A stretch of DNA of 63,469 bases, filler included, from Collodictyon triciliatum (taxonomy: Eukaryota), in assembly GCA_043381765.1 (NCBI GenBank). It is 21 parts of 21 records of this genome, joined end to end, with 100 filler letters (N's around TTAATTAATTAA, not from the genome) between each part and the next. Parts side by side here need not be neighbours in the genome. Positions count along the whole stretch, not along the records: positions 19,120 to 22,204 come from JBHJMP010007819.1; 20 more parts are not named here. One strand, given 5' to 3'. The position numbers and the translations under genes are program-made. Positions 19,530 to 21,377 of this stretch are shown here, piece after piece; position 1 is the first letter of the stretch, and each line of letters starts with the position of its first letter. The notes under the pieces were generated by a model. The model searched no databases. It had not been told where the DNA came from and saw only the letters and a list, made by a program, of their open reading frames with translations.

Positions 19530-21377
19530 ACTTTCTTGACTATGTTTTTTAGCGCAGTTTAAGTCCCTTGTTGAATATACACTTTGCTTTCTGAGCGATC
19601 GCATTCTTTAAATACGAGACATCTATACGCCTTTTTTTGAGTTTCCTTTCAGTGTCATATATTCCAGTTCTTTTTCGCAGCTACAGCACATCTTGGATGT
19701 TCTAAATTCATCTACGCTTACTGTTTCAAAACTTTTGGATAGTATTTTTCGTAATCCTCTTCCTTTATTGCCATAAAATGTTTGATCGGAGATTTTCTGC
19801 TCCAGTCTCCATACGCCAGTACAACATCCTTGCCAAATGTCTTTTCGATTCGGTCCATAAACAATGCTTCACTTCTTTTTGTATTAACATACAGTCTCCA
19901 CCTCATCTTTCGAAAAGTCACTTGTTCATAAAATCTAGAAAGTTCTATCTGGTATCTTAATTTCATAGATAAATATTTTCGAGAATTTTTTCATAATCGA
20001 CCGTGCATGAATTATGTTCACTCAGTTTTGTCTCCAAATCGATTAAAGATAATCTTGATGCCTCAAACTGTTGATTCTCTTCAAAAGTCCTGAGACCAAA
20101 GAAACAGTACTTTGTAAATCTGTTGTCATGTATAATCCTGAATAATTGTACTTTTCTCTTTTCTCGCGCAAGAGTATTTTGTGATTTTTTAAGAGAATTG
20201 CTATCATGTCTTATTTGATGTGCCGTGTAACGTTATTTCTTACCTGTCTCATCCACCATGTAAACCAAATTAAACTTGCCTGCGTCCACTCCGACTATAT
20301 TTTTTTTTTTTCGCTAATAAAGATAACTGCTCTTCGGAAAGTTCATCTATATAGATGTATTCTTGGGTTTTTTGATTAAATTAGATTTTTGAATTTGAAA
20401 TACCTTTCTTTTCAAACAATAATGACACCGCCAAGCCGTCTGTTTGCATCATGTATTTAAAATTGTAGTCTCTTTGATGAAAGACCCTCTTCTTTATTTC
20501 AAAGAAGTCATCCCATAGTGTCTATTTGCGTCCTGATATATTTATTAATAATGATGTTTTCCCAGTTGATACTAGTATATCTATCAAAGATGCAGTATCT
20601 AGAGTAATATGACATAGTATATTGTTAGTTCTTAGAGAGATTGGTTGAAACAGTTTGGTTCCAAAGTCCTCAAAAATGCGATTCATGTAAATCAGATACG
20701 AAATGTACTTGTTTGGATTGACTTTGATGTCATATTCGATACCATTTACAATATCGCTGGGAATGATATGATGCAGATGTATTTTAGCCCATCCTTCGTA
20801 TTGTTCTGGTATGTCGAGTTTCATGAAGATGGCTTCTTTTTTTTCATAGCTCTGCATTTTTTTAATAGCTTCCGTAATATTCTCATCTTTAGGAACTATT
20901 TGATTTATAAAGCGCAGTAACCTCTTTACAAAATGTTCCTTGATGTTGTTATGATAAGCTGTTAACATTTGCTTCGCCAAGTACTGCAATACATGAGGCA
21001 GTCCAAACAACGGAAAGCGTTCTCCTCGGGACAAAAGGAATAGAAAATCATAGAGATAAAAAAGTCATCATGTCTTTACTCATTTCTGGTTTTTTTTTTC
21101 TTAATCTTGCAGGTCTATCTTGTGAAACTATTCCGACTGTCTTTAAACCGTACAAAAACATTTCATCGATTGTTGGAAGTTTTAGTGATTTCAATATGTA
21201 ACATCTTGCAAGCAGATAAGTGTCGGTAACCAAGTTATGACACAATAAAACCGTATCGTTGATTTCGTCATAGTCATCCGGATTCTCTATAATCGACTTT
21301 AGAGATGTTTTCAGATTTCGATGGCCGGGTTTTACCGAATTTATATTCTCAGACTCAAGACGTTTTCTTTTCTTCAT
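19530..21377 (-). pseudogene. Fanzor1 (eukaryotic TnpB-family RNA-guided RuvC nuclease), full-length but with several stops and frameshifts
   Basis: Motifs in order: MKKRKR..LKTSLKSII; YHNNIKEHF; KLFQPISLR; MQTDGLAVSLLF; RuvC-I IVGVDAGK (Asp 20284-20286); RYT; FRKMRW; LAYGDWS; RuvC-II VDEFRTSKMCCSC (Glu 19707-19709); RuvC-III RDLNCA (Asp 19563-19565). Confidence 0.9.

Follow-up and report, generated by a model that had tools for sequence, protein, structure and literature searches.

A decayed Fanzor1 gene copy in Collodictyon triciliatum, one member of a multi-copy family

A Fanzor1 reading on a short contig

The window analysed here, a stretch of 63,469 nucleotides from the Collodictyon triciliatum assembly, consists of concatenated contigs: its 21 pieces are separated by N44-TTAATTAATTAA-N44 spacers, and gene-neighbourhood arguments across the spacers are therefore invalid. 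The true contig of the gene copy described below is the piece from 19120 to 22204 (3085 bp). Microsatellites of roughly 100 bp terminate most of the pieces, this contig among them, and the breaking of contigs at such repeats suggests a short-read assembly. Other pieces encode eukaryotic proteins (WD40, eIF5A, RRM with zinc-knuckle, and sortilin-type) and carry stop-free ORFs of 623–988 aa in the standard code; a reverse-transcriptase-like stretch on the neighbouring piece (18508–18897) had no Pfam support. The genome around the copy is eukaryotic, AT-rich, repeat-rich and microsatellite-dense, and the host-gene-bearing pieces, together with the same type of microsatellite at the contig's ends, agree with the eukaryotic (or eukaryotic-virus) host of a Fanzor1. 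The features of the contig and of the reading on it are as follows.

19120–19221, no strand: microsatellite, 12-mer × 8.5, at the contig start
22097–22204, no strand: microsatellite, AAAGG × 22, at the contig end
19430–21377, minus: Fanzor1 pseudogene of about 648 codons, from ATG (21377–21375) to the natural stop TGA (19432–19430), colinear with residues 1–646 of protein P0001
21360–21377, minus: basic N-terminal stretch MKKRKR, putatively NLS-like; P0001 begins alike
20278–20292, minus: RuvC-I GVDAG, catalytic Asp codon retained, in the column of D364 of P0001
19799–19810, minus: GDWS, Gly at the canonical RuvC-II position (rearranged-site signature), G521 of P0001
19695–19712, minus: DEFRTS, alternative RuvC-II Glu codon retained, E555 of P0001
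19601–19688, minus: zinc-finger region, CCSC (19677–19688) and RCLVFKEC (19601–19624), one conserved Cys changed to Phe
19557–19571, minus: RuvC-III TRDLN, catalytic Asp codon retained, R603/D604/N606 of P0001

An intact public protein of 648 aa, P0001, served as the reference for alignments and for the fold model. In tblastn its residues 1–643 aligned in order along 21377→19439, with the frame switching back and forth and with no second locus at E<1 in the 63-kb window, and a frameshift-aware alignment gave 381 identical residues among 638 aligned (59.7%). A 180-aa fragment of the reading alone matched P0001 at E 6.5e-57 and, among PDB sequences, the Fanzor1 of Guillardia theta (GtFz1, E 1.3e-9), PpFz1 (3.6e-6) and SpuFz1 (2.2e-4); other fragments matched PpFz1 (E 4.4e-4) and SpuFz1 (E 0.016). 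Judged by the GtFz1 and P0001 matches of the 180-aa fragment, the likeness to Fanzor1 is not due to chance. An earlier note on this DNA had joined three ORF fragments into one full-length, decayed Fanzor1. All three are present on the minus strand, and the colinearity with P0001, the fragment matches and the predicted fold of P0001 bear the reading out. Its start at 21377 also stood; its lower bound at 19530 did not, and the reading runs about 100 nt further, to 19430, because the alignment reaches the natural stop.

Full-length P0001 matched GtFz1 (E 2.1e-28), PpFz1 (2.7e-24) and SpuFz1 (3.7e-23) among PDB sequences, and neither a Fanzor2 nor a TnpB at E≤1. When its AlphaFold2 model (pLDDT 85.1, pTM 0.82) was compared with the PDB by Foldseek, the best seven matches were all Fanzor1 (E 1e-27 to 1e-23, TM 0.61–0.79), followed at a distance by ApmFz2 (E 5.7e-5, TM 0.23–0.30) and ISDra2 TnpB (E 1.2e-3). 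The bilobed Fanzor1 fold, with an enlarged REC and a RuvC part, is thus predicted for the intact relative, not for the broken window copy. The earlier note had made Fanzor/TnpB matches and a RuvC nuclease fold its conditions; Fanzor1 matches were obtained for the window fragments and P0001 alike, and a Fanzor1 fold for the P0001 model. Sequence likeness to the solved Fanzor1 structures (Spizellomyces punctatus 8gkh, Guillardia theta 9cer, Parasitella parasitica 9cf0) extends across the N-terminal helical and RuvC parts; the fold is shared with P0001 at only 18–21% structural-alignment identity. Their catalytic order (D, G at the canonical Glu site, alternative E, D) is that of the window family, whereas the window copy itself is a pseudogene.

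A Pfam scan of the window fragments, with a profile set that did not contain PF26935, gave nothing beyond Cas12f1-like_TNB below the gathering score (E 0.017; relatives E 0.011–0.07). Precomputed PF26935 (DUF8286) assignments were present in 8/8 close homologues and in 74–95% of the members of the nearest ESM Atlas clusters. N-terminal NLSs are reported in about 60% of Fanzors (Jiang et al., PMC10530073).

As the earlier note had stated, all three RuvC catalytic codons are retained, in GVDAG, DEFRTS and TRDLN; with GDWS they form the RuvC triad with rearranged RuvC-II Glu that belongs to Fanzor1. D364, G521, E555, R603, D604 and N606 (P0001 numbering) were invariant across 44 relatives. A rearranged site of this kind has Gly or Pro at the canonical Glu position and an alternative Glu downstream, adjoining the zinc finger, and is described not for Fanzors alone but for a subset of the TnpBs too (Jiang et al., PMC10530073). 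The motif order is therefore characteristic of Fanzor rather than exclusive to it, and the claim that it defines Fanzor went too far. In alignment A2 of eight sequences the cysteines of the family zinc finger are invariant (C539/C540/C542 and C563/C566, numbered by the related protein P0003). Zinc-finger cysteines had been said to remain in the window copy, which holds for CCSC but not for the second pair between RuvC-II and RuvC-III: the Cys matching C563 is now Phe, while every row of A2 has Cys. This change is a lesion of the window copy, not a difference of the family.

Relatives in giant viruses and the putative ends of the repeat

The relationships were examined by a quick tree search, with a midpoint root for drawing only and with most protein rows of unstated origin. 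The window copy, P0001 and P0002 formed a clade (SH-aLRT 100), which was joined with P0020 and with L081, L083 and P0011, three rows from giant-virus MAGs, in a set of seven rows (SH-aLRT 97). The copy groups in this tree with virus-borne members of the giant-virus-associated, PF26935/DUF8286-bearing Fanzor1 lineage. Its nearest relatives of known origin lie on giant-virus MAG contigs, and the nearest ESM Atlas clusters are 92–100% Viruses, with Nucleocytoviricota commonest, in line with the earlier suggestion of a giant-virus-type Fanzor1. P0001 is 46% identical to P0011; both have about 630–650 aa, a basic N-terminus and identical motifs.

L081 and L083 have a 3.3-kb unit in common (1631–4952), bounded by 33-nt TIRs that are 97% complementary and containing the Fanzor1 gene together with a DDE_3 and HTH_28 transposase (E 1.3e-13 and 1.5e-15); we take DDE_3 of Pfam to be a marker of IS630 or Tc1/mariner-type enzymes. 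In these nearest viral relatives about 320 bp separate the Fanzor1 start from the transposase, which is encoded upstream on the opposite strand; shorter viral derivatives of 2.0–2.4 kb have matching ends and no transposase. A search of IMG/VR with alignment A2 found relatives of the P0003 clade, which shares about 40% protein identity with P0001, on 487 of 561 stretches; relatives of P0011 were encoded on 5 of 42. The right ends of the P0003 clade are sharp, about 85 nt beyond the ORF, and terminate in ...GGTGTAA, with matching left ends TTACACC...AAACGCC in 6 of the 19 loci examined. RNAalifold folded these viral right ends into a terminal stem of 9 bp, in which only one pair has changed on both sides. 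More compensatory changes were seen by eye; they did not line up in the alignment and were left uncounted.

Contigs of other samples (four public runs, X1–X4) were compared with the locus at ≥80% likeness, their depth not being equal to copy number. Those matching 19355–22090 numbered 444 in X1, 410 in X2, 66 in X3 and 135 in X4, and they delimit three further features.

21378–21760, minus: upstream region that accompanies the ORF in other copies and forms the 5′ part of the repeat unit; contigs bridge the ORF interior to 21563–21758 (6 records)
21413–21585, no strand: 173-bp segment missing in some related copies, either a private insertion here or a deletion there
19355–19429, minus: 3′ non-coding tail, to the point where related contigs stop; putative right end of the element

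The joint 21412→21586, which skips the 173-bp segment, was found in one contig of X1 and two of X2. Pfam recognised nothing in the ORFs upstream of the gene (21443–21889 minus, 21834–22088 plus). On the 3′ side the related contigs end between 19355 and 19449; their depth was 0 over 19260–19354 in all four runs and above 0 from 19355. We place the element's putative right end in 19355–19429, where a guide-RNA scaffold would also stop. The distance is comparable to that in the P0003 clade, in that the related contigs cease within about 75 nt of the stop. Fanzor1 is the sole long ORF in the window element, as it is in the P0003 clade of IMG/VR and in the Spodoptera frugiperda ascovirus type; unlike in these compact viral elements, the gene of the window family is accompanied by a stretch of at least about 380 nt ahead of the ATG. 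For the ascovirus Fanzor1, the guide RNA described comprises about 120 nt and a further 20 nt or so past the right end (Yoon et al., bioRxiv 10.1101/2023.08.09.552727).

The RNA fold of 19340–19560 had z −2.47, with 2 of 200 shuffles equally stable. A covariance model built from 47 viral right ends had no significant match in the window (E 3.5 in the expected 3′ region). Its best match, also not significant (E 0.15), fell at 21379–21441 on the plus strand, 64 nt upstream of the ATG; the left end of some viral elements is similarly far from the ATG, and we regard the match as a lead only. Rfam had no match on the contig, and the inverted-repeat scan of the contig returned only low-complexity or chance pairs and no convincing terminal pair.

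Neither TIR nor TSD was identifiable at the window copy within its 3085-bp contig, which stops short of the element's 5′ end. In tblastn against the window, viral DDE_3 transposases reached E 2.1 at best, and the small upstream viral ORFs gave nothing below E 1. Thus, in contrast to L081, L083 and P0011, transposase, TIR and viral right-end sequence are not recognisable in the window. A DDE transposase beside Fanzor1 within shared TIRs was found in L081 and L083 and not in the 827 bp that the contig covers upstream of the ATG, where the viral-type transposase position would run off the contig. The earlier argument that the element is non-autonomous, as no transposase lies in the contig, does not hold: the absence is uninformative on autonomy because the true contig, ended by microsatellites, has only 3085 bp.

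The proximity to viral sequences raises the alternative that the contig belongs to a giant-virus genome, or to a giant-virus segment recently integrated, rather than being a host-resident transposon copy. The giant-virus MAG relatives and the viral ESM Atlas clusters speak for it, and the contig is too short for neighbouring genes to show. However, no member of the window copy's subclade turned up in IMG/VR: a search with P0001 confirmed none of 36 candidate stretches among the IMG/VR viral contigs (and none of 184 among metagenome contigs), and a degenerate DNA pattern for T-A-Y-H-N-N-I-K-E-H-F had no match in either set. Both contig ends are microsatellites like those ending host-gene-bearing pieces, and the hundreds of diverged contigs per run (80–99% alike), as well as the heavy decay, fit an old, proliferated repeat family. 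We consider the viral alternative improbable and retain a host-resident repeat copy.

Lesions of the copy and their state in related contigs

Alignment to P0001 revealed four premature stops and nine frameshifts.

20522–20524, minus: premature stop TAG; most related contigs have C, not A, at 20524 (plus strand), which gives GAG (Glu)
20381–20383, minus: premature stop TAA (Glu in P0001)
20233–20235, minus: premature stop TAA (Leu in P0001)
19508–19510, minus: premature stop TAA in the C-terminal tail
21056–21068, minus: frameshift near 21062, one extra nt, T6 run
20296–20311, minus: frameshift near 20299, one extra nt, A12 run directly ahead of GVDAG
20185–20193, minus: frameshift near 20193, one extra nt, A6 run; many related contigs are one base shorter at 20185
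20097–20106, minus: frameshift near 20105, one nt missing; extra base behind 20097 in related contigs
19975–19985, minus: frameshift near 19977, net one nt missing; related contigs have an indel at 19983, its register not reconcilable
19762–19766, minus: frameshift near 19765, one nt missing; extra base behind 19764 in most related contigs of X1 and X2
19631–19640, minus: frameshift near 19637, one extra nt, A7 run
19570–19575, minus: frameshift near 19573, one nt missing, directly ahead of TRDLN
19545–19552, minus: frameshift near 19550, one extra nt, A6 run directly past RDLNCA

The lesions are stops and indels, several of the latter in A-runs, as the earlier note had observed: homopolymer runs of at least six bases hold five of the nine frameshifts, and the other four lie outside long runs. 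A Fanzor1 open reading frame is thereby lost, and with nine frameshifts, four premature stops and the missing zinc-finger Cys the window copy therefore cannot make the enzyme.

Results for the related contigs showed that their majority has the unbroken state at several of these sites. C at 20524 accounted for 129.3 of 183.5 depth in X1, 159.6 of 195.6 in X2 and the entire depth in X3 and X4. Much of the depth also carried frame-restoring indels, namely the one-base deletion at 20185 (130.6/191.8 in X1), the extra base behind 20097 (78.1/122.7 in X2, 5.41/88.2 in X1) and the extra base behind 19764 (75.1/107.4 in X1, 61.9/89.3 in X2, 23.3/57.6 in X4, 0/13.5 in X3). As the related contigs cover 19355–22090 repeatedly and are mostly unbroken at several lesion sites, the window copy belongs, as a decayed member, to a multi-copy family, and at several sites the lesions are private to it.

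That the gene is intact in the organism, with the breaks due to short introns or to errors (homopolymer miscalls) in assembly or sequencing, is very unlikely. The five frameshifts in homopolymer runs are what miscalls would give, and by eye GT..AG-bounded stretches of 42–57 nt can be drawn around three breaks. Yet P0001 is colinear through each of these putative introns, with conserved residues inside, so that they are coding sequence; all four stops are base substitutions, a conserved Cys is replaced, and four frameshifts lie outside long runs. In addition, the terminal branch of the window copy (0.46) is about three times as long as those of P0001 and P0002 (0.13–0.14), and the contig breaks at microsatellites suggest short-read assembly. 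Homopolymer miscalls are rare in short-read assemblies. The lesions are thus most probably real, as indicated by their number, the frameshifts outside long runs, the substitution stops and the long branch. A word search of the listed sequencing runs found none in which half of the words of the stretch occur (best share 0.14), and no RNA run was among the matches listed.

Two readings of the breaks were tried and rejected. Introns were one, as several breaks can be enclosed in GT..AG stretches, yet P0001 aligns colinearly across these. An alternative genetic code would account for the four stops, all TAA or TAG; the nine frameshifts would remain, and the long ORFs on other pieces fit the standard code.

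What the copy represents

Fanzor2 (Acanthamoeba polyphaga mimivirus 9b0l) and TnpB (ISDra2 8h1j) have the RuvC core, the zinc-finger insertion and the general mechanism in common with this family, but they are much shorter, and P0001 matches their folds far more weakly (E 5.7e-5 and 1.2e-3, TM 0.19–0.31). The sub-threshold Cas12f1-like_TNB matches notwithstanding, there is next to no chance that the copy is a relic of Fanzor2 or of a prokaryote-type TnpB, as the PDB sequence matches are exclusively Fanzor1, the rival fold matches are about 20 orders of magnitude weaker, and the length of about 648 aa with a large N-terminal helical part is Fanzor1-like. The reading 21377–19430 on the minus strand is, with high confidence, a dead Fanzor1 gene copy and one decayed member of a multi-copy family.

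By analogy with the family, the intact form, about 648 aa long, would be an endonuclease that cuts double-stranded DNA under RNA guidance. Its single RuvC active site would be composed of the Asp of G-x-D-x-G, a rearranged Glu within D/N-E-x-x-T-S and the Asp of R-D-x-N. The nuclease gene would be carried within a DNA transposon, in whose maintenance it may play a role, and transcription of a guide RNA would begin at the gene's 3′ end and run past the transposon right end placed above into flanking DNA. Less damaged or intact family members exist elsewhere, P0001 being one, and the nearest relatives of known origin, in giant-virus genomes, sit in TIR-bounded elements with a DDE_3 transposase or in shorter derivatives free of it.

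Fanzor1 genes and their decayed "ghost" loci, the occurrence of Fanzor1 in both protists and giant viruses, and a link to Mariner/Tc1 transposons are already published (PMC10432273, PMC10530073, 10.1101/2023.08.09.552727). A literature search combining "Fanzor" and "pseudogene" found no paper on this subject. Fanzor1 relics are ordinary, and a single dead copy of a known family is of little consequence by itself; Fanzor1 pseudogene is a suitable annotation for the locus. The intact relatives that the earlier note had hoped for exist, in that P0001, a close one, is intact and already public. Together with the well-sampled viral sister family with its clear ends, this natural protein would be a better start for nuclease discovery than a rebuilt relic.

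A broader reading is possible, though we hold it only tentatively: the subclade of the window copy, P0001 and P0002 may be a host-resident, high-copy Fanzor1 lineage exchanged between a protist and its giant viruses on a DDE_3 (Tc1/IS630-like) transposon, with intact members such as P0001 still active as RNA-guided nucleases that have a guide scaffold of their own and a target motif rich in A/T. If true, the family would allow the passage of a programmable nuclease between virus and host to be traced, and it could yield a new compact editor.

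Reading frame and identity of the disrupted gene

The locus is a Fanzor1 pseudogene, a decayed copy from a multi-copy family whose closest kin are the transposon Fanzor1 genes borne by giant viruses. The three ORF fragments reported in the earlier note are present, and the largest (180 aa, 20522-21064) matches P0001, an intact 648-aa relative, at E 6.5e-57 with 58% identity. In tblastn searches, residues 1-643 of P0001 were colinear with 21377->19439 in alternating frames, and no second P0001 match was seen in the window at E<1. A frameshift-aware alignment to P0001 takes the gene from an ATG at 21377 to its natural TGA at 19432-19430, with 381 of 638 aligned residues identical (59.7%); the lower bound first proposed, 19530, was about 100 nt short of this true end. 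Nine frameshifts (near 21062, 20299, 20193, 20105, 19977, 19765, 19637, 19573 and 19550), five of them in homopolymer runs of six or more, and four premature stops (TAG 20524, TAA 20383, TAA 20235 and TAA 19510) interrupt the frame, and the window copy cannot produce a protein. Introns were considered and rejected: some breaks can be framed by short GT..AG stretches, but colinearity and conservation with P0001 continue through these without interruption, which makes them coding sequence.

The window copy has kept the three catalytic motifs that the earlier note had listed:

20278-20292, minus strand, GVDAG, catalytic motif
19695-19712, minus strand, DEFRTS, catalytic motif
19557-19571, minus strand, TRDLN, catalytic motif

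The second zinc-finger pair reads RCLVFKEC, with Phe at a position that is Cys in all sequences of our 8-sequence protein alignment. Invariant columns among 44 full-length relatives include D364, G521, E555, R603, D604 and N606 (P0001 numbering), and G521 (GDWS) with E555 (DEFRTS) form the "rearranged" RuvC-II arrangement. Jiang et al. (PMC10530073) assign this arrangement to Fanzors and to a subset of TnpBs, so the motif order is typical of Fanzor and not, as initially stated, defining.

Comparison with solved Fanzor1 proteins showed matches of the window fragments to GtFz1 (E 1.3e-9), PpFz1 (3.6e-6 and 4.4e-4) and SpuFz1 (2.2e-4 and 0.016). P0001 matches the same three at E 2.1e-28 to 3.7e-23, and the PDB sequence search gave it no further match at E<=1 except two myoglobin rows attributable to chance. 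An AlphaFold2 model of P0001, made with 44 relatives as input (pLDDT 85.1, pTM 0.82), has Fanzor1 structures as its top seven PDB fold matches (E 1e-27 to 1e-23, TM 0.61-0.79), followed by weaker matches to Cas12 variants (1e-7), mimivirus Fanzor2 (5.7e-5) and ISDra2 TnpB (1.2e-3). The Fanzor match and RuvC-nuclease fold expected of the repaired protein were both found, the former for the fragments and P0001, the latter for the P0001 model. Representative proteins matching the 180-aa fragment numbered 612 at E<=1e-3, 147 at E<=1e-10 and 4 at E<=1e-30. The Pfam search returned nothing above threshold and Cas12f1-like_TNB below it; the precomputed domain PF26935, named DUF8286 in the ESM Atlas, is on 8 of 8 close homologues.

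Assembly context and related contigs

Twenty identical spacers (44 N, TTAATTAATTAA, 44 N) divide the 63,469-base window into 21 pieces, so that it is not one contig and arguments from neighbouring genes are invalid across a spacer. Nineteen of the 21 pieces measure 3,074-3,092 bp, their order is roughly descending, and most carry a microsatellite of roughly 100 bp at both ends. They look like the product of short-read assembly from a genome dense in microsatellites, from which we infer the read type. The piece with the Fanzor1 gene has a G+C content of 33.7%:

19120-22204, Fanzor1-bearing piece, 3,085 bp
19120-19221, 12-mer repeat at the piece start
22097-22204, (AAAGG)n at the piece end

Other pieces encode eukaryotic proteins: two WD40 propellers, eIF5A, an RRM plus zinc-knuckle protein, a sortilin/VPS10-type protein and one with an ephrin-receptor-like Cys-rich repeat; there is one tRNA-Ala in the window. 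The WD40-repeat ORFs (3540-4667 and 24114-25436, both plus strand) are long and intron-free with highly regular repeats, the former showing a tandem period of 126 nt across 3780-4478. A 988-codon ORF (38375-41341, minus strand) with nine ephrin-receptor-like Cys-rich repeats extends into a spacer, and its C-terminal part is hydrophobic and probably multi-pass. Pieces 9571-12649, 44577-47655, 55520-58593 and 61868-63469 have G+C-rich (55-58%), gene-like cores and A/T-rich microsatellite flanks; composition is strongly heterogeneous inside single contigs. One piece contains a run of 473 N (43468-43940), a scaffold gap distinct in kind from the 44-N spacers.

Contigs from four public sequencing runs, X1-X4 (two coded organisms from one study, one subsurface metagenome and one freshwater metagenome), were compared with the window at >=80% likeness. 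Over 19355-22090 there were 444, 410, 66 and 135 contigs in X1-X4, and depth, which when taken from contigs does not amount to a copy number, was 0 across 19260-19354 in all four runs. At the TAG-stop site the base giving GAG (Glu) was found at a depth of 129.3/183.5 in X1 and 159.6/195.6 in X2, and throughout in X3 and X4. Frame-restoring indels were common at 19764, 20185 and 20097; an indel at 19983 did not fit the register of the P0001 alignment. As related contigs show these unbroken states, the window copy belongs, as a decayed member, to a multi-copy family whose copies have diverged, and several lesions are its own. The best public run shares 0.14 of the stretch's sampled words, and the compared contigs come from other samples.

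Giant-virus relatives and their elements

ESM Atlas clusters nearest P0001 are 92-100% viral, with Nucleocytoviricota commonest. In an IMG/VR scan with the 8-sequence alignment, 487 of the 561 candidate stretches proved to encode relatives; the top 80 among these are 80-93% identical to the related protein P0003, many on contigs named as giant-virus MAGs (GVMAG). For P0011, a relative 46% identical to P0001, viral loci were found in 5 of 42 candidates. P0001 itself was found in none of 36 candidates in viral contigs or 184 in metagenome contigs, and its degenerate motif pattern had no match in either collection. A quick maximum-likelihood search over 51 rows, most of them without known origin, gave an arbitrarily rooted tree in which the window copy forms a clade with P0001 and P0002 (SH-aLRT 100), nested in a 7-row set (SH-aLRT 97) that also includes P0020 and three GVMAG rows, L081, L083 and P0011. 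This grouping bears out the giant-virus-type resemblance suspected from the sequence. The window copy's branch is 0.46, vs. 0.13-0.14 for P0001 and P0002.

Viral loci L081 and L083, of the P0011 clade, lie in different neighbourhoods and have in common one 3.3-kb unit, 73.8% identical:

L081:1631-4952, TIR-bounded 3.3-kb element
L083:1625-4951, TIR-bounded 3.3-kb element

Its inverted repeats are 33 nt long and 97% complementary, and it encodes an HTH_28 plus DDE_3 transposase of 343-346 aa (E 1.3e-13, 1.5e-15), with the Fanzor1 gene on the other strand. These units agree with the Mariner/Tc1-associated autonomous Fanzor1 elements already in print, as described by Jiang et al. (PMC10530073).

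In the P0003 clade, similarity ends sharply about 85 nt past the ORF at ...GGCGTTT(T/G)AAAT...GGTGTAA (37 loci). A matching left end, TTACACC...AAACGCC, lies about 415-450 nt upstream of the ATG in 6 of 19 loci examined; in the others common similarity begins only about 60 nt upstream. Matching these ends against the TIRs of L081 and L083 gives a terminal sequence common to both clades. Compact 2.0-2.4-kb Fanzor1 elements on giant-virus contigs (L002-L078, e.g. L002:3587-5957) look like non-autonomous derivatives of the transposase-bearing element. The compact P0003-clade elements agree with the simple non-autonomous viral elements that Yoon et al. (bioRxiv 10.1101/2023.08.09.552727) describe, with short TIRs and the guide RNA reaching about 20 nt beyond the right end. 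The viral right end has a possible terminal stem of 9 pairs (RNAalifold) with modest covariation as counted, and viral loci fit TA or TTA(N) duplication alike. Immediately 5′ of Fanzor1, and reading in the same direction, longer P0003-clade elements carry a short ORF (93-100 aa) rich in Lys and Glu, for which matches were weak, sub-threshold and TSC22-type (leucine-zipper-like):

L005:3635-3934, Lys/Glu-rich small ORF
L012:3651-3938, Lys/Glu-rich small ORF
L021:3659-3937, Lys/Glu-rich small ORF
L035:3639-3935, Lys/Glu-rich small ORF

Right ends without an adjoining Fanzor gene occur at L040:8913-9055, L012:2212-2354 and 3208-3350, L063:7579-7721 and 8501-8643, and L073:5869-6011, and may be "ghost" or solo ends; in L040 a left and a right end stand back to back, MITE-like.

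Ends of the window copy and mode of action

On the 3′ side the related contigs extend no more than about 75 nt past the stop codon, much like viral elements. In other copies the ORF is accompanied by upstream sequence that reaches at least about 380 nt from the ATG. Some related contigs of X1 and X2 lack 173 bp of this upstream sequence (21413-21585), which is either a private insertion in the window copy or a deletion variant. An inverted-repeat scan of the Fanzor1-bearing contig found no TIR pair. A covariance model made from 47 viral right ends had no significant match in the window (E 3.5 at the expected 3′ region, whose fold is somewhat better than shuffles, z -2.47). Its best match, at a non-significant E of 0.15, is 21379-21441 on the plus strand, opposite to the gene and 64 nt upstream of the ATG; the left end of some viral elements lies at about that distance, and the match may be either the remnant of a left end or a chance one. 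Viral transposases gave no tblastn match below E 1 in the window. The contig extends 827 bp beyond the ATG on the upstream side, too short a stretch to contain in full a divergent transposase in the position seen in L081, so its lack of a transposase is no evidence of the non-autonomy that the earlier note proposed.

Judging from the family, intact members would bind a transcript of the 3′ end of the gene and the right end of the transposon. Some 20 nt of the flank would serve as guide, matching DNA would be cut by the single RuvC site, and the cutting would presumably be to the transposon's benefit. That a live, host-resident Fanzor1 lineage has been exchanged with giant viruses is a tentative reading, which we consider rather unlikely.
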